Source: a virus (lineage: Duplodnaviria > Heunggongvirae > Uroviricota > Caudoviricetes). From it: a DNA stretch of 5,822 nucleotides. A program made the position numbers and the translations under genes. The DNA lies in the IMG/VR virus record IMGVR_UViG_2541047425_000019, one strand, 5' to 3'. Of this stretch, positions 1 through 5,822 are shown piece after piece; the stretch's first letter is position 1, and every line of letters begins with the position of its first letter. The notes under the pieces are model-generated. The model had not been told where the DNA came from. It was given only the letters and a program-made list of their open reading frames with translations, and ran no database searches.

Positions 1-120
1 GTGACGTTAACCAGTTAACAATTAACGCCGGATACAGAGAATCCCCCCATAACACTGTTTTTGGCTTTAACTGTTCCGCGTGCGCTCAGCCGCATTCACC
101 GCATCACAAAATTCACTTTT

Positions 121-164
121 AAAAAAGGGCGGCAGAGCAGTTACGGAGTAAAACTGATACCGCC
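121..164 (-). terminator. Possible intrinsic terminator (minus-strand orientation), interrupted stem
   Basis: Outer arms GGCGG (128-132) / CCGCC (160-164) and inner arms CAGTT (138-142) / AACTG (152-156); the A6 run at 121-126 is a U6 tract immediately 3' of the stem on the minus-strand transcript. The stem is interrupted and the enclosed region is long, so this is weak. Confidence 0.2.
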
Positions 165-514
165 AAATGTCACCAGAATATTGATAACAGAGGGCGTTGC
201 AGCGGGGTTGTCACTTAAGCGTATGGTCAACCTGACAACCCGGTGTCCTCAACGGGGAAAGAATAACCCCGCCATACTTACCGCCGCGCCATTTCGCGGA
301 TTGCCACAACCGGAAGCGCACGGTCGAATTAAATTTAACGACGGCTCTAAGGGAGAAGGACTTCGCCGTGCACTTTCGTGTTATGCCCTGACTTTTCAGG
401 GATATATCCTTTCAGTAAACTGTCAGTGCCGGATTCTTATCTGTGTCCGGCGCACGACCACACGTAGCAGCGTGTTGGTCTCCATTTTTAATTCAGCCCT
501 TAATGGAGGATAAA

Positions 515-700
515 ATGCCAAACAAACCATGCCCTGCCTGTAACGCTCTTTCTGGCTTTTTAGAGAAGGGCGGTTATTACATTTTTAACTGTCCAGAACA
601 TGTTGAATTTCATATATCAAAACTTGACAGTATCATTACAAAGCCAAATCAGTATCAGTCTGATTTACTGAATAAAGAGTTAAACGCCGCCCGAGATTAA
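515..700 (+). CDS. Small hypothetical protein (61 aa) with Cys/His motifs (CPAC ... CPEH), possible zinc-ribbon-like protein
   Basis: ATG at 515 is preceded by GGAGG (505-509) with a 5-nt spacer; it is the in-frame internal start of track ORF 443..700. The upstream part of that ORF lacks an RBS. Product MPNKPCPACNALSGFLEKGGYYIFNCPEHVEF...; stop TAA at 698-700. Confidence 0.45.
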   Translation: MPNKPCPACNALSGFLEKGGYYIFNCPEHVEFHISKLDSIITKPNQYQSDLLNKELNAARD

Positions 701-737
701 GGGCGTAGTGGCCCATTAAAAATATTGCAAAGACCAA

Positions 738-1037
738 CTATTGTTGAACTGGATTAAACCAGTAATTCTCTATTGCTCTTATTGTTACCATCGGATGATT
801 GCCGGGGGTTATTTTAAGTTCGGGAGGAAAAGGCTCTCCATCAGCAGCCATCATTGAGTATGTGAAATCCGCCGACGCAGTCCCTTTCATGATAATTCCG
901 AATTTTTCAAGTAATGAGAGCAGTTCCGGTAATCCTGTGTCATCTGAATAACTTTCCTCATAGAAAGAAGCGATTGCCGCAGGAGATGACAGTTCTCGCT
1001 CTGCAATTTTTTTGTAGTTTTCCAGAATTCTTTTTTT
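738..1037 (-). other. -1-frame C-terminal extension of the 887..1276 gene (about 97 codons, no start codon of its own); fusion product about 179 aa
   Basis: Hand translation of the minus strand in the -1 frame from the A7 run (complement of plus T7 at 1031-1037) gives RILENYKKIAERELSSPAAIASFYEESYSDDTGLPELLSLLEKFGIIMKGTASADFTYSMMAADGEPFPPELKITPGNHPMVTIRAIENYWFNPVQQ, stop at 738-740. There is no ATG/GTG/TTG in this frame between the upstream in-frame stop (about 1086) and the internal Met, so it cannot be an independent gene of this length. Confidence 0.45.
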
Positions 1038-1276
1038 GAATACTTTTCCTCGACATGAAAACCCATCACCGAGGCAATCCGCTTTGCAGTTTCTTCAGTA
1101 TTCTGGTTGTTTGTTACCGAAACAGAGTACAATCCGGTAAACGCATCGCGCACATTACGAGCCATATTATCAATGTATTTCTTCGTTGCAGATTCTAATT
1201 CAACTTCGTTCAGACGTTGGTGAAGTGCATGTGCTGCAATTTCCTGGATTTCTTTTAGTAAATCTTTAAATTCCAT
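887..1276 (-). CDS. Hypothetical protein, zero-frame product (129 aa) of an AT-rich gene interrupted by a frameshift
   Basis: Track ORF 887..1276. ATG (complement of 1274-1276) is preceded by GGAG with a 6-nt spacer, placed directly after the stop of the upstream small ORF. The N-terminal 82 aa look like real protein; the zero-frame tail after the A7 runs looks low-quality. The region looks AT-richer than its flanks. Confidence 0.55.
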   Translation of the reverse strand: MEFKDLLKEIQEIAAHALHQRLNEVELESATKKYIDNMARNVRDAFTGLYSVSVTNNQNTEETAKRIASVMGFHVEEKYSKKEFWKTTKKLQSENCHLLRQSLLSMRKVIQMTQDYRNCSHYLKNSELS

Positions 1277-1287
1277 CTTTAACTCCG

Positions 1288-1416
1288 TTAGTCGTTAGAT
1301 TTTGCCGAACTGGAAAGCGCCTGTTTAAACTCACTGAAGCTGAGAGCTTCCTCGCCTTCGGCAAGGCCTTCGAAGTATTCTTCGTAAGCCTTTTCCATGA
1401 TTGTGTCGAAATCCAT
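1288..1416 (-). CDS. Small acidic hypothetical protein (42 aa)
   Basis: Below the track's size cutoff; found by hand. ATG (complement of 1414-1416) preceded by AGGTGA with a 5-nt spacer; product MDFDTIMEKAYEEYFEGLAEGEEALSFSEFKQALSSSAKSND; stop TAA (complement of 1288-1290) followed directly by the RBS of the next gene. Tightly coupled with its neighbours. Confidence 0.5.
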   Translation of the reverse strand: MDFDTIMEKAYEEYFEGLAEGEEALSFSEFKQALSSSAKSND

Positions 1417-1417
1417 A

Positions 1418-1573
1418 TCACTCACCTGAGTTTCTTTCCAGCCAGCGACGGGCACCATTTTCGGTTTTAAACGTTTTGCTTTTGGTATACGTCATCGCGG
1501 TGAATGTACCGTCCTGGTTGGGAAACACGCCGTACACCAGAGATTCGTTGTTGCCAAGATCGATAGTATCCAT
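1418..1573 (-). CDS. Small hypothetical protein (51 aa), first gene of the leftward early operon
   Basis: Track ORF 1418..1612 trimmed to the internal ATG (complement of 1571-1573), which has GAGG 6 nt upstream; product MDTIDLGNNESLVYGVFPNQDGTFTAMTYTKSKTFKTENGARRWLERNSGE. Its stop lies 1 nt before the ATG of the 42-aa ORF. Size and position recall the small ORFs left of the repressor in Rac-like prophages, but I do not claim identity. Confidence 0.5.
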   Translation of the reverse strand: MDTIDLGNNESLVYGVFPNQDGTFTAMTYTKSKTFKTENGARRWLERNSGE

Positions 1574-1759
1574 GTTGACCTCATTTCCCCTTAACGCCGG
1601 GTAGCGGAACAAAAACCTGCTGCATAGTTATTAAAGTTGAACCCTGCCGTCATGTTCATACGCCTCGGGCTGGCTACTTACCCCCTGACCACTGCTTGGT
1701 AACTCGAAGTATTGCCCGGCGTTCTGTGGGGCGGGGTGGGTGGTTGGTGTATGTAATCT

Positions 1760-1799
1760 ACAATAAAAAACTGTTTTTGTGTCAACAGTTTTTAATTGT
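1760..1799. promoter_or_regulatory. Operator-like inverted repeat (OL analogue) with candidate leftward promoter
   Basis: ACAATAAAAAACTGT (1760-1774), 10-bp spacer, ACAGTTTTTAATTGT (1785-1799); the left arm is identical to the 15-mer at 2795-2809. A perfect TTGACA -35 hexamer on the minus strand (complement of 1780-1785) lies inside the element; the -10 is ambiguous (TAGATT at a 19-nt spacing). Confidence 0.5.
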
Positions 1800-1809
1800 T
1801 GTTTTGGGC

Positions 1810-1832
1810 AAAAAAATCCCTCGAAAGAGGGA
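1810..1832 (-). terminator. Rho-independent terminator of the repressor/TA operon (t_imm-like)
   Basis: Minus-strand transcript reads TCCCTC-tttc-GAGGGA followed by TTTTTTT, 19 nt after the parE stop: a 6-bp GC-rich stem, 4-nt loop and U7 tract. Confidence 0.5.
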
Positions 1833-1850
1833 GTATGAAAATTGTTCAAC

Positions 1851-2138
1851 TCAGATAGAGAAGGGAAATTGTCGCCGAGAATGTGTCACGCTTACAATCT
1901 CAATGCTTGAAGCAGCTACTCTGTACAGGATTATGTAGTTAGGGTGGGTCACGATCTCTCTCAATCCAGAAACCCGTTCGCTTGGTGGATATAAGTACGG
2001 ATGCTCAGATAGAGGTAATACCGATGTTTCAATGCGTATTTTTAGTCTACGTGCTGCCGGTGGGTTCTCCTTGGCGATGTAAGTTATGATCTGGCGCAAA
2101 TCATCGCGAGCAGACGGTAGCCATAAAATGGGTAACAT
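1851..2138 (-). CDS. parE: ParE/RelE-family type II toxin (95 aa)
   Basis: Track ORF; the sequence (…ARDDLRQIITYIAKENPPAARRLKIRIETSVLPLSEHPYLYPPSERVSGLREIVTHPNYIILYRVAASSIEIVSVTHSRRQF…) has the characteristic ParE pattern. Its start overlaps the antitoxin stop as TAATG (2136-2140), a classic translational coupling. Confidence 0.85.
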   Translation of the reverse strand: MLPILWLPSARDDLRQIITYIAKENPPAARRLKIRIETSVLPLSEHPYLYPPSERVSGLREIVTHPNYIILYRVAASSIEIVSVTHSRRQFPFSI

Positions 2139-2329
2139 TACTCGCTCTTGTTAGTTACAGCAATTTGAGCAATAAGATTTTCCATTTCAGCCATTACCTC
2201 GTCATGTGGAATTGCGGGGCGAGTGTCTGCAAGGCTTGACGTTACTTTAGTGCGCAACCATTCGTTGTAACTGTTTTCTTGTTCGGTAGTTTCGAATTCT
2301 GAAACTATCGGAGAAAGGGCTGTACCCAT
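2138..2329 (-). CDS. paaA: PaaA-like antitoxin (63 aa) partnered with ParE
   Basis: Track ORF; ATG (complement of 2327-2329) preceded by GGAG with a 7-nt spacer. The product (…SPIVSEFETTEQENSYNEWLRTKV…RPAIPHDEV…) resembles, from memory, the PaaA2 antitoxin of the E. coli O157 paaR2-paaA2-parE2 module. Small, acidic, immediately upstream of and coupled to parE. Confidence 0.75.
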   Translation of the reverse strand: MGTALSPIVSEFETTEQENSYNEWLRTKVTSSLADTRPAIPHDEVMAEMENLIAQIAVTNKSE

Positions 2330-2356
2330 GGCATAACTCCTCTTCTTGTACTGTGG

Positions 2357-2758
2357 TCACGCCCGGCGGCTTTTTTGTGCCGCCAGCCACCTAGCAATGG
2401 TTTCTTCCATTGATTTTTTCTTGTCTTTGATTTCTTGAAGCATTTTTTCTTGGTCTTCCTCAGGAAACGCACTAAAAGCTTGGAGCAGTTCGCGTTGGCG
2501 AGGACCAATTTTCATCGTGTCAGGGGTGAAAATTTGCTCACACTCTTCAGGAGGCAATAAAAACCAATGCAATGGATGCCCTGAAACCTCAACCAGTTTA
2601 TCCAAACTTGAGGCTTTAGGTGTAGCCTTACCGCTGACCCATTGTTGAACAGTTTGTTGTGTCACACCAATTCTACGGGCAAGCTCAGCCTGGCTCCATC
2701 CAGTTTCCTGAAGAAGCTTGCTGATTCTGTACATAGATACTTCTAGGGCGCTCATCAT
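2357..2758 (-). CDS. paaR: DicA/PaaR-like HTH (XRE-family) transcriptional repressor; likely the CI-type prophage repressor and TA regulator (133 aa)
   Basis: Track ORF; N-terminal HTH (…WSQAELARRIGVTQQTVQQWVSG…) and a C-terminal region resembling the DicA C-terminus (…RQRELLQAFSAFPEEDQEKMLQEI…). Transcribed divergently from the cro-like gene. No SD before the ATGATG start, and a TAAAAT -10-like hexamer sits 7 nt upstream, so the mRNA may be leaderless. The exact start (M1, M2 or M9) is uncertain. Confidence 0.8.
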   Translation of the reverse strand: MMSALEVSMYRISKLLQETGWSQAELARRIGVTQQTVQQWVSGKATPKASSLDKLVEVSGHPLHWFLLPPEECEQIFTPDTMKIGPRQRELLQAFSAFPEEDQEKMLQEIKDKKKSMEETIARWLAAQKSRRA

Positions 2759-2866
2759 TATTCAATTTTACAGGTAAATACTGTTAAAAGCATCACAATA
2801 AAAAACTGTTGATTGCATACAGTTTTTTATTGTAGGCTTTGCTTATAGTTTTTAGAGGAGGGCAAA
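2759..2866. promoter_or_regulatory. Divergent promoter/operator region (OR analogue; PRM-like leftward and PR-like rightward promoters)
   Basis: Perfect 15-bp inverted repeat ACAATAAAAAACTGT (2795-2809) / ACAGTTTTTTATTGT (2819-2833) with a 9-bp spacer; extra ACTGTT / ACAG half-site-like motifs at 2770-2785. Rightward TATAGT (2844-2849) lies just upstream of the cro SD; leftward TAAAAT (complement of 2765-2770) lies 7 nt before the repressor ATG. The -35 elements are weak or ambiguous. Confidence 0.6.
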
Positions 2867-3139
2867 ATGCTAGATAGCACTCGCGAAAAAATTAGGCAGA
2901 AATACACTCAGGCTGAAATAGGTCGTTATATGGGGGTCGCTCAACAGACTGTTTGGCAATGGTTTAGCTTTGGCGTTCCCCCAAAGCAGGTAATTCCGTT
3001 ATGCCAACTAATGAAGTGGGAAGTTACCCCGCATGAAATCCGCCCAGATATTTATCCTAACCCAACCGACGGTTTACCTGTTGGATGTAAGGTTAACACA
3101 TCAAATGCGCCGGAGTTGATTCATGAAAATCAAGCATGA
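2867..3139 (+). CDS. ydaS: Cro-like HTH regulator of the YdaS family (90 aa)
   Basis: Track ORF; GGAGG 6 nt upstream of the ATG; HTH (…IGRYMGVAQQTVWQW…) and the YdaS-family hallmark …VTPHEIRPDIYP…. First gene transcribed rightward from the operator region. Confidence 0.8.
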   Translation: MLDSTREKIRQKYTQAEIGRYMGVAQQTVWQWFSFGVPPKQVIPLCQLMKWEVTPHEIRPDIYPNPTDGLPVGCKVNTSNAPELIHENQA

Positions 3140-3548
3140 ACACATCCGCATGGCGATGAATGCCTGGGCGCATCCGGACGGCGAAAAAGTACCGGCTGCG
3201 AAAATTACCAAAGCGTATTTCGAGCTGGGAATGACGTTCCCGGAACTGTATGACGACAGCCATCCGGAAGCCATGGCTCGCAATACTCAGAAAATTTTCC
3301 GCTGGGTGGAGAAAGACACTCCTGATGCGGTTAAAAAAATTCAGGCGTTGTTACCAGCGATCGAAAAAGCGATGCCGCCTCCGCTGGTGGCCCGAATGCG
3401 CAGCCACAGTTCCGCTTATTTTCGGGAGTTGGTAGAGACGAAGGAACGGCTGGTGAAAGATATTGATGATTTCGTTGCATCAGCGATCGTTCTGTTCGAT
3501 CAGATGAATCGTGGTGGCCCGGCAGGAAACACTCTGGCTGTGCATTAA
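3123..3548 (+). CDS. ydaT: YdaT-like protein (141 aa), proposed functional analogue of CII in Rac/CP-933P-type prophages
   Basis: Track ORF; N-terminus MKIKHEHI… matches my recollection of YdaT proteins. It overlaps the end of the cro-like gene by 17 nt in another frame, typical of a coupled operon; GGAG lies 7 nt upstream. Confidence 0.75.
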   Translation: MKIKHEHIRMAMNAWAHPDGEKVPAAKITKAYFELGMTFPELYDDSHPEAMARNTQKIFRWVEKDTPDAVKKIQALLPAIEKAMPPPLVARMRSHSSAYFRELVETKERLVKDIDDFVASAIVLFDQMNRGGPAGNTLAVH

Positions 3549-3561
3549 TTGGGTAATAAAT

Positions 3562-4071
3562 ATGAGTAATGACAAAAAATTGACACTGAGCGTTTACGAA
3601 AACAGTCCGCACATCTGGCGTGGCGGTTTATCTGATGTGGAGCTGGCAGAGTGGTTGATACATAAAGCTAATGCGCTGCTCTGGCGTTTGTCAGCCAGAG
3701 AACAGCGCAAGGAAACCAGAATAAAGCTGGCTGATGCAGAAGCGTGTGCCGGGCTTATTGAGGATTATACAAATCTTGGTATTTCTTCAGCAGAGAGTGA
3801 TCCCATTCAGCCTCTGAGCAGGGAGTCAATCCAGCACGCTGGTTGTATGGCACATCTTGTAACTGCTCGTCAACATGAGGTGGGTATTGGATCACTTCCG
3901 GCGGGATATTCGCTGATTCCAGAGCTGGTTGAAGCAAGAAAATCAGTTCAGAAAAAGAGAGATGACGCACTTCAATTATTGAGAGAGCACTATGGCGCGA
4001 TACCAGAATGCGAACAGCGTCGATACCCTGAAGGTTATGAATGGATGCAGTCTCTTTTTGAAGTTCGCTAA
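3562..4071 (+). CDS. Hypothetical protein (169 aa), inserted between the CII analogue and the replication genes
   Basis: Track ORF 3511..4071 trimmed to the ATG at 3562; the track's GTG start at 3511 would overlap ydaT. First-codon-position G is about 36% by hand count, typical of real coding. The RBS is weak, and a long antisense ORF with a strong RBS overlaps it (see findings). Confidence 0.5.
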   Translation: MSNDKKLTLSVYENSPHIWRGGLSDVELAEWLIHKANALLWRLSAREQRKETRIKLADAEACAGLIEDYTNLGISSAESDPIQPLSRESIQHAGCMAHLVTARQHEVGIGSLPAGYSLIPELVEARKSVQKKRDDALQLLREHYGAIPECEQRRYPEGYEWMQSLFEVR

Positions 4072-4288
4072 TCAATATGTCGAGACGAAGGTATGTTTCG
4101 GCGCGCAGCCAGGCTCTGTAATCCGGGAGCATTTCGGGGCTGTTACACCAGCGGTTTGTTGCTGCAACATTTAATACATGAGCCTGATAAAGGCTTTTCA
4201 AAAAATACATGTCGAACCTCCTCTGGTTCTGTCGATTGGGAACCACAGATTATATCCGGAGGAAGGTTCGGCACCAGATGAGGTAGCC

Positions 4289-5380
4289 ATGCGTGATTAC
4301 GCAAAAGTTTCTCCGCGATTCTGGCTGGGAGAAACGGGGAGAGAACTTAGAAAGGCGGGTGCAGAAGCGCAAGTTGTTGCTTTTTACCTGATGACATCCC
4401 CTCACGCAAATATGCTGGGTTTGTATTACCTGCCAGTTTTATACCTTGCTCATGAAACCGGGCTTGGTCTGGAAGGGGCTTCAAAGGGGCTTAAAAGGGC
4501 TGTTGAAGCTGGTTTTTGTAGCTATGACCATGATGCAGAGATGGTCTGGGTCCATGAAATGGCAGCCTGGCAGGTTGGGGAAACGTTGAAGCCTGGCGAT
4601 AACCGTTGTGCAGGTGTCAGGAATGAGTATGCATCATTACCTGAAAACGCTTTTCTGTCAGTGTTTTACGACAGATATAAAACGGATTTCCATCTGGATG
4701 TGAGGCGGAATAATAGCCGAAATTCGGTAAGGGGCTTCGAAGGGGCTTTTAAGGGGCTTCGAAGCCAAGAACAGGAACAGGAGCAGGAGAAAGAACAGGA
4801 ACAGGACAAAAACACTATGGTTCATGGCAAAAAAAACACCACGAACCAGGCAGGGGATGTTCAGACCGTCAATCCTGGTCAGCCAGCAGGCACGACACCG
4901 GAAGCCGATTCGGGCGCTGTGCAGCAGGTGATGACCGCAGGGTCGGAGCAATCACACCAACTGCAGCAGCCTGAAGCCGATTCCGCCATTCAGCGGGAAG
5001 CCGATCGGGTAGTCCCGGAAAGCACCGGGCAGTCTGTGGGACGAGTGGATTATCCGGATGTGTTCGAACAGGTCTGGCGGGAATACCCGTTGCGTGCTGG
5101 GGCAAACCCGAAGAAATCCGCTTTCAGTGCCTGGAAGGCCAGATTGCGCGAGGGGGTGCCACCAGAGACCATGCTGGATGGTGTGAGGCGTTACGCGAGA
5201 TACCTGGCGGCGACCGGGAAAGCGGGAACGGAATTTGTTCAGCGAGCGACGACGTTTTTTGGGCCGGACCGGAATTTTGAAAACCCCTGGTTGCTCCCGG
5301 TAAGCGGCACGAACAACCAGCGTTGTGTGAATCATATTTCTGAACCGGATACCGAAATTCCGCCGGGATTCAGGGGGTGA
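4289..5380 (+). CDS. Phage replication initiation protein (O-like; N-terminal DNA-binding region, low-complexity EQ-repeat linker, C-terminal domain of the conserved phage type) (363 aa)
   Basis: Track ORF 4178..5380 trimmed to ATG 4289, which has GAGG 5 nt upstream. Sits directly upstream of the DnaC-like gene with a 6-nt gap. The C-terminal region (…YPDVFEQVWREYPLRAGANPKKSAFSAWKARLREG…) recalls the conserved C-terminus of phage replication proteins; the family assignment is from memory. Confidence 0.7.
   Translation: MRDYAKVSPRFWLGETGRELRKAGAEAQVVAFYLMTSPHANMLGLYYLPVLYLAHETGLGLEGASKGLKRAVEAGFCSYDHDAEMVWVHEMAAWQVGETLKPGDNRCAGVRNEYASLPENAFLSVFYDRYKTDFHLDVRRNNSRNSVRGFEGAFKGLRSQEQEQEQEKEQEQDKNTMVHGKKNTTNQAGDVQTVNPGQPAGTTPEADSGAVQQVMTAGSEQSHQLQQPEADSAIQREADRVVPESTGQSVGRVDYPDVFEQVWREYPLRAGANPKKSAFSAWKARLREGVPPETMLDGVRRYARYLAATGKAGTEFVQRATTFFGPDRNFENPWLLPVSGTNNQRCVNHISEPDTEIPPGFRG
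4726..4812. repeat. Iteron-like direct repeats and hexanucleotide repeat inside the O-like gene (candidate origin)
   Basis: AAGGGGCTT-type 9-mers repeated three times at 4728-4760, including palindromic GGCTTCGAAGCC (4755-4766), then (GAACAG)-like repeats at 4767-4806 and an A-rich tract. A related cluster AAGGGGCTTCAAAGGGGCTTAAAAGGGCT lies at 4473-4501. Confidence 0.4.
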
Positions 5381-5386
5381 TGTGGC

Positions 5387-5822
5387 ATGAAAAACATTGC
5401 GGCAGCCGGGGTTCTTGAACGTATTCGCAGACTTGCACCACAGGCGTCGGTTCCACCGTACCGGACGGTGGAGGAGTGGCGGGAATGGCAACTTGCTGAA
5501 GGACGAAAACGCAGCGAGGAGATTAACCGCCAGAATCACCAGTTGCGGGTGGAAAAAATCCTGAACCGTGCGGGCATCCAGCCGCTTCACAGGAAGTGCT
5601 CATTCGGGAACTACCGGGTGCAGAACGACGGTCAGCGCCATGCTCTGAGCCAGGCGAAATCCATTGCCGATGAATTGATGACCGGATGTACAAACTTCGT
5701 GTTCAGCGGTAAACCTGGTACCGGTAAAAATCACCTGGCAGCAGCGATTGGCAATCGGCTGATGGCGAAGGGGAGAAGCGTGATTATCGTCACCGTGTCC
5801 GATGTCATGAGCGTGTTGCATG
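5387..5822 (+). CDS. DnaC-like replicative helicase loader (AAA+ ATPase), 5' part; continues beyond the window
   Basis: Not in the ORF track because there is no stop in the window. Hand translation from ATG 5387: MKNIAAAGVLERIRRLAPQ…CSFGNYRVQNDGQRHALSQAK…FVFSGKPGTGKNHLAAAIGNRLMAKGRSVIIVTVSDVMSVLH; the Walker A motif GKPGTGKNHLA and overall strong resemblance to E. coli DnaC are clear. Confidence 0.85.
   Translation, partial: MKNIAAAGVLERIRRLAPQASVPPYRTVEEWREWQLAEGRKRSEEINRQNHQLRVEKILNRAGIQPLHRKCSFGNYRVQNDGQRHALSQAKSIADELMTGCTNFVFSGKPGTGKNHLAAAIGNRLMAKGRSVIIVTVSDVMSVLH

Follow-up and report, generated by a model that had tools for sequence, protein, structure and literature searches.

The DNA analyzed here (the window, 5,822 nucleotides at full length) contains three co-oriented genes on the minus strand, paaR1, paaA1, and parE1, and, opposite them, the plus-strand genes ydaS and ydaT. 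The first gene of the operon, paaR1 (2357–2758), was examined using the open reading frame list, Pfam, NCBIfam, PDB, and blastp, and encodes a 133-aa HTH repressor, an analogue of CI and DicA. Its protein has an XRE-type HTH at the N-terminus (approximately residues 9–70) and then a helical C-terminal domain common to PaaR2. Pfam assigned it to HTH_3 (PF01381, E = 2.3e-12) with a weak Phage_CI_repr match, and among solved structures the 434 repressor comes closest (E = 3e-5); the PDB search returned only the 434 repressor and HipB-type HTH domains, and a PaaR2 structure was absent from it. Residues 11–130 matched the NCBIfam DicA model (NF007257, 8.4e-14) with 51.5 bits, below the 101-bit cutoff, and by this measure PaaR1 is only a distant relative of the DicA family. 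Its N-terminal domain is 45–55% identical to CI of Stx2 phages and phi467, the identity to Gifsy-type and SPN3UB-type CI is 28–32%, and that to PaaR2 of prophage CP-933P is 42% over 98 aa, mostly in the last ~45 aa. No Peptidase_S24 domain was detected in PaaR1 by the Pfam profile search. Considering this absence and the length of only 133 aa, PaaR1 is a functional CI analogue from outside the CI/LexA family, and RecA-mediated induction is not expected for a protein lacking the S24 autocleavage domain. PaaR2 likewise lacks an S24 peptidase domain (PMC8630535).

The gap between paaR1 and paaA1 is 27 nt, and no terminator was found between the genes by a terminator scan. The paaA1 gene (2138–2329, minus strand) encodes a 63-aa antitoxin without a DNA-binding domain; its only Pfam domain is PaaA2 (PF21217, E = 5.6e-19), and the PDB match is PaaA2 of CP-933P (3zbe, E = 1.4e-20). 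A Shine-Dalgarno sequence, GAGGAG, is located at plus-strand positions 2337–2342, with the ATG 7 nt further on. The two antitoxins are 70% identical and diverge in the last ~18 residues, in agreement with the initial annotation, which had described the antitoxin as different from PaaA2. As that annotation had also stated, the toxin start overlaps the antitoxin stop: the TAATG at 2136–2140 (minus strand; CATTA on the plus strand) contains the paaA1 stop and the parE1 start, which share one base.

The parE1 gene (1851–2138, minus strand), translationally coupled to paaA1, encodes a 95-aa ParE-family toxin (Pfam PF05016 ParE_toxin, E = 2.9e-17; PDB ParE2 5cw7, E = 3e-36), so that similarity to ParE/RelE toxins, whose absence would have spoken against the module, is evident. 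ParE1 and ParE2 share ~67% global identity, with differences mainly in the N-terminal ~40 residues. The suggested comparison with PaaR2, PaaA2, and ParE2 thus identified relatives for all three proteins. It is extremely improbable that parE1 encodes a ribosome-dependent mRNA interferase of RelE type instead of a ParE-type toxin. NCBIfam RelE_StbE (TIGR02385) matches the 95-aa protein barely over the cutoff (28.4 vs. 27.9 bits) and RefSeq names the antitoxin "RelB family"; however, the best matches of the toxin by far are ParE2 and further ParE structures, its Pfam class is ParE_toxin, and nucleoid colocalization and SOS induction have been described for ParE2 (PMC8630535). Both GyrA59 binding and gyrase inhibition by ParE2 were reported negative (PMC10886550).

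On the plus strand, ydaS (2867–3139) encodes a 90-aa Cro analogue (PF15943 YdaS_toxin, 8e-10) and ydaT (3123–3548) a 141-aa CII analogue (PF06254 YdaT_toxin, 1.2e-9). YdaT is matched in the PDB by 8bt1, the CP-933P YdaT (1.4e-82), and by 3c4r (3.9e-83). No blastp match was found between YdaS and the YdaS of CP-933P (locus L006), YdaS being specific to the present immunity type, and the PDB search revealed no solved relative of it. The cI position proposed for the first gene, divergent from cro and CII analogues, was borne out by these Pfam assignments.

Regulatory regions and the gene-end hairpin

The paaR1–ydaS intergenic region (108 bp) contains an OR-like operator cluster (2770–2833) of three 15-bp ACA-N9-TGT sites at 2770–2784, 2795–2809, and 2819–2833, whose starts are 25 and 24 bp apart and whose centers lie at approximately −19, −44, and −68 from the paaR1 ATG. 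Six ACA-N9-TGT matches were found in the window (1.47 expected), five of them in two regulatory regions. The site positions are conserved across four genera: −75, −51, and −26 from the repressor ATG are all occupied in E. coli L005, Salmonella L007, and Klebsiella L010, and two of the three in Morganella L012. The second region (1755–1799, minus strand) is OL/PL-like, with ACA-N9-TGT at 1760–1774 and 1785–1799 and a candidate leftward promoter, TTGACA (1785–1780)-N19-TAGATT (1760–1755), directed at ydfA/ydfB/DicF/dicB. An identical 16-nt sequence, ACAATAAAAAACTGTT, is present at 1760 and 2795, and in L005, L007, L010, and L012 the cargo is followed by a pair of OL-like sites. This region is analogous to PL933P of CP-933P, for which repressor–operator binding and bistable expression have been shown with PaaR2/YdaS (PMC8630535). 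From their position, repetition, and conservation, we infer that the ACA-N9-TGT sites would be bound by PaaR1; a search of the literature library yielded no experimental work on PaaR1 itself.

A PRM-like −10 element, TAAAAT (plus-strand 2765–2770; feature 2758–2770, minus strand), lies 6 nt before the paaR1 ATG, and the sequence contains no Shine-Dalgarno for this gene. A −10 at this distance implies a leaderless paaR1 mRNA, which is a prediction here. Its register is that of GATAAT-N6-ATG in paaR2 (L006), and TAAAAT or TAGAAT followed by N6–7 and ATG likewise occurs in L003, L007, L010, and L012. In paaR2, the leaderless start was mapped via 5' RACE and N-terminal sequencing (PMC8630535). For ydaS-ydaT, a putative PR-like promoter, TTGATT-N18-TAGGCT, was read from the sequence at 2809–2838 (plus strand), with one operator within the spacer and another abutting the −35; the same position holds TTGACC-N18-TAGTCT in Salmonella and TTGACC-N18-TACTCT in Klebsiella. 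A generic sigma-70 promoter scan stayed below threshold throughout both regulatory regions, and PR and PRM were therefore assigned from analogy and cross-genus conservation. Directly 3' of the parE1 stop, an intrinsic-terminator-like site (1810–1832, minus strand; UCCCUC-UUUC-GAGGGA then UUUUUUU, −9.6 kcal/mol) is where the operon transcript probably ends.

The YdaT high-affinity operator OM (3116–3133; TTGATTcatgaaAATCAA, TTGATT-N6-AATCAA) lies across the ydaT start codon. It matches the published YdaT operator exactly and is the sole zero-mismatch site in the window. OM is found at the equivalent place in the CP-933P-type locus L006, the two sequences being nearly identical from 3112 to the right, and it was footprinted in CP-933P (PMC9986795). 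By analogy with that prophage, OM marks a PRE-like alternative start of leftward transcription into paaR1-paaA1-parE1.

A hairpin at the end of the repressor gene had been put forward as an element that could give different stability or translation to the regulator and toxin–antitoxin (TA) parts of the transcript. Its existence was confirmed, with GGCGGC-ttttttgt-GCCGCC exactly at 2365–2384 (feature 2363–2386, minus strand; CUGGCGGC-ACAAAAAA-GCCGCCGG) and a stem extending to 8 pairs (approximately −19 kcal/mol); its regulatory role is unsupported, as it lies in coding sequence, within the last paaR1 codons (..WLAAQKSRRA), has no U-run beside it, and is not conserved in register. The candidate terminator was rejected: on neither strand is there a U-run beside the hairpin, the minus-strand stem being followed by GGGCGUGACC, and the terminator scan was blank there. 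No other all-GC 6-bp hairpin occurs in the window, but one or more turn up in 16% of composition-matched shuffles, and hence the hairpin alone is not beyond chance.

It is also very unlikely that the hairpin functions at the RNA level, for instance by limiting processing or decay or by modulating translation, so that regulator and TA pair are made at different levels. The stem is stable, the fold of the 101-nt hairpin region is more stable than that of shuffles (z = −3.2), and a gene-end hairpin of −14 to −22 kcal/mol is possible in four of the five TA-bearing variants, compared with only −8 to −12 in three TA-less homologues; these eight sequences are related and not independent. On the other hand, the hairpin falls within the codons of a conserved peptide, AAQK[S/G/C]RRA, and the pairing potential follows from these codons being GC-rich and quasi-palindromic. 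Registers differ among the variants with no compensatory changes; synonymous codons break the hairpin in two of the five TA-bearing variants (L003 loses the stem in this way), and the persisting hairpins are in a different register. As a conserved RNA element, the hairpin was thus rejected.

Identity of the locus and its relatives

Window positions 1851–2866, which cover the three genes and the paaR1–ydaS intergenic region, are 100% identical over 1016 bp to E. coli EDL933 (NZ_CP008957.1, 1254787–1255802). A base-for-base comparison of 88–5565 with the same locus gave zero mismatches; differences are confined to the far ends, 40–87 and 5566–5800, the latter in a DnaC-like gene. The EDL933 locus is inside a prophage whose boundary is an integrase adjoining yccA; a literature search tying CP-933M/Sp4 to the yccA/serT integration site gave no match. 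The paaR1-paaA1-parE1 paralogue on CP-933M of E. coli O157:H7 EDL933 is said to have been described by Hallez and colleagues in 2010 (Mol Microbiol 76:719). In the same strain, CP-933M carries a homologue of paaR2-paaA2-parE2 (PMC8630535), and the assignment to CP-933M is based on this report together with the EDL933 coordinates and context. There are two paralogous systems, without cross-neutralization between PaaA1 and PaaA2 (PMC4803016), each toxin being reported as toxic and as neutralized only by its cognate antitoxin (PMC4803016, a secondary citation). Based on its sequence, the stretch is the already known paaR1-paaA1-parE1 operon of CP-933M, with no difference within the present finding; the label "system 1" for this exact locus is based on secondary citations and elimination. 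The three-gene module of paaR-paaA-parE type in a lambdoid immunity region is therefore established by gene order, Pfam and PDB matches, and EDL933 identity, whereas the suggestion of a distinct antitoxin variant was ruled out, since the sequence is identical to the published locus and already bears a name.

All five proteins of the locus have unchanged copies on at least 1000 contigs, their clusters bearing generic names and no CP-933M label, and the O157:H7 strain PV15-279 carries both system types, at 1.154 Mb and 2.125 Mb. The module was found in no record of the phage collection searched, in which phage Evi is the only ParE carrier; judged from the match levels (ParE 67%; PaaR 41.8% over residues 37–133), the Evi ParE is apparently of system-2 type.

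The closest well-studied relative, paaR2-paaA2-parE2/ydaS-ydaT of CP-933P, has the same gene order and orientation (PMC8630535, PMC9986795), and shares with system 1 the PaaA and ParE similarity given above, a closely related YdaT, an identical OM, a near-identical PRE region, and the leaderless geometry (−10 hexamer-N6-ATG). Its immunity specificity is different. PaaR2 has 123 aa and starts with MQKKE; its N-terminal HTH sequence is unrelated to that of PaaR1, whereas the last ~45 residues are conserved. The operators are ACA-N9-TGT 15-mers here and GTTTAGTAA-type repeats in CP-933P, and the intergenic regions are 108 and 97 bp long, respectively. Both repressors share the conserved C-terminal domain.

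Similarity to lambda cI-rexA-rexB is seen in the divergent repressor and cro genes, three operators ~24 bp apart over PRM and PR, a second set at PL, a leaderless repressor mRNA (predicted here), and nonessential cargo downstream in the repressor operon. The centers of lambda OR3, OR2, and OR1 resemble those found here (approximately −19, −44, and −68 from the PRM start). Unlike lambda, however, PaaR1 lacks an S24 domain, only two OL-like sites are present, YdaT as the CII analogue forms a POU-type tetramer, and the cargo is a TA pair instead of RexAB. In size and architecture (~130 aa, N-terminal XRE HTH and helical C-terminal domain), PaaR1 is similar to DicA of the DicA-DicC pair of Qin and to the short non-cleavable repressors of Gifsy-1/Gifsy-2 and SPN3UB. 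DicA also occupies the cI position in a defective lambdoid prophage, but is not followed by a TA pair. No antirepressor was identified at the present locus. Canonical parDE systems (RK2, Caulobacter, and Vibrio) have in common with paaA1-parE1 a ParE-fold toxin, a small, labile, and partly disordered antitoxin, and addiction behavior; in contrast, an RHH DNA-binding domain is missing from PaaA1, and a separate prophage repressor takes over the autoregulation.

PaaR1 homologues occupy the same slot in Salmonella (80% identity), Klebsiella (68%), and Morganella (~68%), with the same operator layout and divergent ydaS-ydaT, together with other cargo or none, and no TA pair. Thus, paaA1-parE1 is exchangeable cargo. 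The slot between the repressor and OL may behave as an exchange site, in which paaA-parE would be one of several cargoes on DicA-like repressors across Enterobacterales. These homologues also bear on whether the operon is a self-contained three-component TA system, in which PaaR1 is the detached DNA-binding half of an antitoxin that autoregulates the operon and its cI-like position is incidental. The three genes are indeed tightly packed and co-oriented without intervening terminator, PaaR2 together with the PaaA2-ParE2 complex was reported to repress the operon of system 2 (PMC4803016), and E. coli variants are conserved at the DNA level over parE and paaA and on into the 3' third of paaR (matches over query 14–674). 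However, close homologues with the same operators exist in the same prophage slot without the pair, the operators are repeated at the OL-like site outside the operon, the N-terminal domain of PaaR1 is like phage CI DNA-binding domains and the whole protein like DicA, and PaaR2 primarily represses ydaS-ydaT (PMC8630535). We consider that there is very little chance of such a self-contained system, and regard PaaR1 as a prophage repressor with cargo.

Proposed regulation and role of the pair

We propose, with a probability of about 0.85, that paaR1-paaA1-parE1 of this CP-933M/Sp4-type cryptic lambdoid prophage of enterohaemorrhagic E. coli, located between the OL/PL- and OR/PRM/PR-like regions, where lambda has cI-rexA-rexB, combines a lysis–lysogeny switch with an addiction module. 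In this model, PaaR1 would act as a DicA/CI-like HTH repressor, short and not cleavable, and would be translated from a leaderless, PRM-like transcript. It would bind the three ACA-N9-TGT sites between paaR1 and ydaS and the two past the terminator downstream of parE1, thereby repressing two operons, ydaS-ydaT-replication to the right and ydfA-DicF-dicB to the left, and tuning its own promoter. YdaS, as the Cro analogue, may compete for these operators, and YdaT, as the CII analogue, may act on TTGATT-N6-AATCAA at the ydaS/ydaT junction to switch on the PRE-like leftward promoter that reads into the operon. PaaA1 would be translated from its own ribosome-binding site, with ParE1 coupled to it through TAATG; the antitoxin, which lacks a DNA-binding domain and is probably protease-labile, would neutralize ParE1 through direct binding. 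Loss or recombining away of the immunity region would then poison the cell, so that the pair would be addiction cargo stabilizing the prophage rather than a trigger that induction sets off. As CP-933M is considered a cryptic prophage, its switch may have partly decayed in vivo.

CI/Cro/CII-like regulation, bistability, leaderless translation, and post-segregational killing in this model come from the literature on the paralogue, and their transfer to system 1 is our extrapolation. The paaA2-parE2 pair is transcribed in both switch states, neither of which raises SOS, and ParE2 acts only on locus loss, in post-segregational killing that depends on ClpAP/ClpXP (PMC8630535). These data on the paralogue speak against the earlier proposal that ParE might be freed on induction or when the repressor is lost.

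On the other hand, paaA1-parE1 might serve mainly in rexAB-like defense or superinfection exclusion, that is, abortive infection of other phages, rather than in addiction. The pair occupies the rexA-rexB position (PMC9986795), cargo in the slot is varied and unrelated in other genera, as at defense hot spots, and one Salmonella cargo protein has a sub-threshold match to the EACC1 conflict system. However, PADLOC models matched neither PaaA1 nor ParE1 (PaaR1 gave generic HTH matches alone), no phage-challenge data were found in the literature, and published data on system 2 report plasmid stabilization and, for the conditions used, no activation of the toxin (PMC8630535). A mainly defensive role thus seems unlikely, and addiction remains our preferred interpretation. 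The two roles are not mutually exclusive.

The heteroimmune prophages CP-933M (system 1) and CP-933P (system 2) are co-resident in O157:H7, and regulatory coupling between them is a tentative, rather doubtful possibility. As their YdaT proteins are closely related and the OM and PRE regions virtually identical, YdaT of one prophage could switch on expression of the repressor and the TA pair in the other. PaaR2 octamerizes, and mixed PaaR1/PaaR2 oligomers might also form.

That the regulator acts as a CI analogue was shown experimentally for paaR2-paaA2-parE2 on CP-933P (Jurenas 2021, PMC8630535). Since both the locus and this idea have been published, the operon is real and well organized but ordinary: a textbook-style TA pair riding inside a prophage lysis–lysogeny switch, in which little is new. 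The present analysis contributes the gene identities, the identity with EDL933, the anatomy of operators, promoters, and terminator, and the view of the TA pair as exchangeable cargo; what it adds is modest, namely an explicit operator and promoter map of system 1. The existence of the repressor family without the TA pair supports the published idea of TA insertion into a pre-existing immunity region, and a testable hint is provided that two co-resident O157:H7 prophage switches may have a common CII-like input.

Identity of the locus and its products

The region at 1851-2866 (1016 bp) is 100% identical to positions 1254787-1255802 of the E. coli O157:H7 EDL933 genome (NZ_CP008957.1). Of 5426 complete E. 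coli genomes, 507 contain it at a coverage of at least 80%. In the full alignment to EDL933, there are no differences across 88-5565, and mismatches are confined to 40-87 and 5566-5800. The latter contains 42 substitutions relative to EDL933 CP-933M, all within the gene for a DnaC/IstB-like ATPase, whereas the patch near 40-87 combines indel and substitution changes. This clustering of differences at the ends suggests recombination patches, and the strain of origin is distinct from EDL933. In EDL933, the locus lies within a lambdoid prophage whose starting integrase adjoins yccA, followed by exonuclease, dicB, ydfB/ydfA, the three genes, ydaS/ydaT, replication genes, hokD, rusA, and Q.

It has been reported that CP-933M carries a homologue of the paaR2-paaA2-parE2 system of the same strain (PMC8630535). 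We also recovered the system-2 locus in E. coli (L006), which has a 97-bp intergenic region with GTTTAGT repeats and a PaaR2 starting with MQKKE, in agreement with published N-terminal sequencing (PMC8630535); it is clearly distinct from the locus in the window. In the O157:H7 genome PV15-279, both types are present, that of the window at 1.154 Mb and that of system 2 at 2.125 Mb. Because of the identity to EDL933, the reported CP-933M homologue, and the separate system-2 locus, the locus in the window is paaR1-paaA1-parE1. The initial annotation had noted that the antitoxin differs from PaaA2, which holds (70% identity), and had proposed a distinct variant, which instead is this named paralogue.

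As that annotation had described, three co-oriented genes are present on the minus strand, confirmed by the ORF list, the sequence, and Pfam: paaR1 (2357-2758, HTH repressor, 133 aa), paaA1 (2138-2329, antitoxin, 63 aa), and parE1 (1851-2138, toxin, 95 aa). The overlap of antitoxin stop and toxin start was likewise correct: Base 2138 is common to both genes, and the plus-strand CATTA at 2136-2140 reads TAATG on the coding strand. Divergent from paaR1 are a ydaS-family gene (2867-3139, plus) and a ydaT-family gene (3123-3548, plus), both assigned by Pfam.

Protein and HMM comparisons identified the 95-aa protein as a ParE toxin (PF05016, E = 2.9e-17), with ParE2 of E. coli O157 as its best solved relative (5cw7, E = 3e-36), and the 63-aa protein as PaaA type (PF21217, E = 5.6e-19; PaaA2 structure 3zbe, E = 1.4e-20). 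PaaR1 has an XRE-type HTH (PF01381, E = 2.3e-12) and a weak Phage_CI_repr match, and an S24 peptidase domain was not found by Pfam. Its closest solved relative is the DNA-binding domain of 434 repressor, and in the N-domain it shares 45-55% identity with the CI proteins of Stx2 phages and phi467. Similarity to DicA spans almost the full length, with a score under the family cutoff. PaaR1 also resembles the short non-cleavable CI of Gifsy and SPN3UB phages.

Other genes in the window include a leftward "ECs1072 family phage-associated protein" gene (RefSeq; 3755-4210, minus). It is situated after ydaT and before the replication gene, runs antisense to the early operon transcribed rightwards, and overlaps a 186-aa ORF (3511-4071, plus) without a Pfam match. 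The ORF in the replication-initiator position (4178-5380, plus), also without a Pfam match, contains an (EQ)n low-complexity stretch, QEQEQEQEKEQEQD, at 4757-4810; its RefSeq start is later (1092 nt) than that of the longest ORF. A small ORF (513-700, plus), annotated as hypothetical only, has two Cys pairs (CPAC ... NCPEH); it lies between DicF and a 129-aa ORF, in an orientation facing the leftward operon.

Operators, promoters, and hairpins

Six matches to ACA-N9-TGT were detected in the window (1.47 expected), five of which fall in two clusters: One between paaR1 and ydaS (starts 2770, 2795, and 2819; 25 and 24 bp apart) and one downstream of parE1 (starts 1760 and 1785). An identical 16-mer, ACAATAAAAAACTGTT, is found at 1760 and 2795. 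The three intergenic sites lie at -75, -51, and -26 relative to the repressor ATG, and the motif occupies the same positions in E. coli L005, Salmonella L007, and Klebsiella L010, with two of the three kept in Morganella L012. The inner bases vary among these four loci, each of which has a site pair downstream of the cargo position. In L001 (strain 2013C-3277), whose prophage is near-identical to that of the window and adjoins potC, a different insertion site, two substitutions (window-equivalent 1765 and 1774) fall within the OL-like operator at 1760-1774; the other operon sequence is identical.

By analogy, a PRM-like -10 (TAAAAT) is predicted on the coding strand 6 nt upstream of the paaR1 ATG, and no Shine-Dalgarno sequence was seen ahead of this ATG. 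The placement of the hexamer matches, in register, GATAAT-N6-ATG of paaR2, for which a leaderless start has been mapped by experiment (PMC8630535). If +1 is at 2758, the operator centres would lie at about -19, -44, and -68. Lambda OR3, OR2, and OR1 occupy close to these positions relative to PRM.

In a PR-like candidate, TTGATT-N18-TAGGCT (2809-2838), the spacer contains one operator and the -35 abuts another, an arrangement that recurs in Salmonella and Klebsiella (TTGACC-N18-TAGTCT or TACTCT). The PL-like candidate TTGACA-N19-TAGATT (1785-1755, minus) is arranged likewise with respect to the two operators downstream of parE1. Ahead of it, separating it from the operon and immediately 3' of the parE1 stop, lies a hairpin that resembles a terminator and ends in a U7 run (1832-1810, minus). 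Downstream of ydfA/ydfB is a DicF small RNA gene of full length (127-178, minus; Rfam RF00039, 76.9 bits with the gathering score at 48, E = 2.8e-16). Since the PL-like promoter would drive the leftward operon to which this gene belongs, DicF expression is probably under PaaR1 control. The YdaT operator OM has been defined as TTGATT-N6-AATCAA at the ydaS/ydaT junction, over a PRE-like start (PMC9986795); an exact site at 3116-3133 spans the ydaT ATG.

The hairpin GGCGGC-N8-GCCGCC noted at the end of paaR1 is present at exactly 2365-2384 and, extended to 8 pairs, is stable (about -19 kcal/mol). The initial annotation suggested that it could give the regulator and TA parts of the transcript different stability or translation. 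It lies within the codons of ...WLAAQKSRRA, 5-30 nt ahead of the stop, and neither the sequence nor a terminator scan revealed an adjacent U-run on either strand. Synonymous codons remove it in E. coli L003 and yield another hairpin, in a different register, in L004, the L005 alternative, and L006; no compensatory changes were seen among the homologues compared. Local folds tend to be stronger in TA-bearing than in TA-less variants, only a hint from eight related sequences. A regulatory role is unsupported.

Cargo and mosaic boundaries

PaaR1 homologues in three other genera occupy the same cI-like slot, with divergent ydaS-ydaT and the same operator layout. The Salmonella homologue (80% identity) is followed by an unrelated 112-120-aa protein and the Klebsiella homologue (68%) by 84- and 170-aa proteins, and Morganella has OL-like sites without preceding cargo. 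Within E. coli, paaA-parE occurs in at least five immunity types (window/L005, L003, L004, L006, and L014). That homologues hold the slot without paaA-parE and these immunity types carry it supports the published suggestion that the TA pair was inserted into a pre-existing immunity region. The alternative, that PaaR is simply a split-off antitoxin domain, is argued against by the homologues in three genera, which keep slot and operators without the TA pair.

The Salmonella L008 cargo in place of paaA-parE (4553-4915) has a sub-threshold match (22.4 vs 23.6 bits) to EACC1 (Effector Associated Constant Component 1), a hint that this slot can house a protein of a conflict system. A search of 50,697 phage genomes gave a single PaaR/ParE-type module, in Escherichia phage Evi (LR597642.1, 24413-25192); by match levels it resembles the system-2 type, and its ParE is unannotated.

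To the right of about 3112, the sequence is almost the same as in the CP-933P type; to the left it is unrelated. Because near-identity begins there, the immunity module, as judged from these alignments, is a mosaic cassette with one boundary at the end of ydaS. The other lies inside paaR, at about 2520 in paaR1: DNA similarity among E. coli variants covers parE, paaA, and the 3' third of paaR, and PaaR1 and PaaR2, whose N-terminal HTH domains are unrelated, are conserved in their final ~45 residues.

Differences between the two TA pairs concentrate in the C-terminal ~18 residues of PaaA and the N-terminal ~40 of ParE, so system specificity may plausibly reside there. ParE2 induces SOS and binds the nucleoid (PMC8630535), and GyrA59 binding and gyrase inhibition were reported as negative (PMC10886550). 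In one E. coli assembly, an IS91-family element (Zn_Tnp_IS91/Y2_Tnp; L006 1319-2871) interrupts parE2, inactivating the toxin and leaving paaR2 and paaA2 intact.

Relation to the CP-933P switch

The initial annotation was right to place a paaR-paaA-parE operon in the immunity region with its regulator as the CI analogue, as published for the paralogue: PaaR2 is a CI analogue that has a leaderless mRNA and forms octamers; the operators to which it binds overlap PRM- and PR-like promoters, and it also represses a PL-like one, with YdaS and YdaT as Cro and CII analogues in a bistable region (PMC8630535). The locus and the main idea are already known. PaaR2 lacks an autocleavage motif and is unresponsive to mitomycin C (PMC8630535). 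The further proposal that induction could release ParE is contradicted for the paralogue, in which paaA2-parE2 is transcribed in both switch states without toxin activation; the CP-933P region stabilised an unstable plasmid via post-segregational killing (PMC8630535).

It appears rather unlikely that the two co-resident switches are regulatorily coupled through their near-identical YdaT/OM/PRE and common PaaR C-terminal domain. Most likely, the switch in the window is a heteroimmune relative of the one on CP-933P, and paaA1-parE1 serves as its addiction cargo at the place that rexAB takes in lambda.
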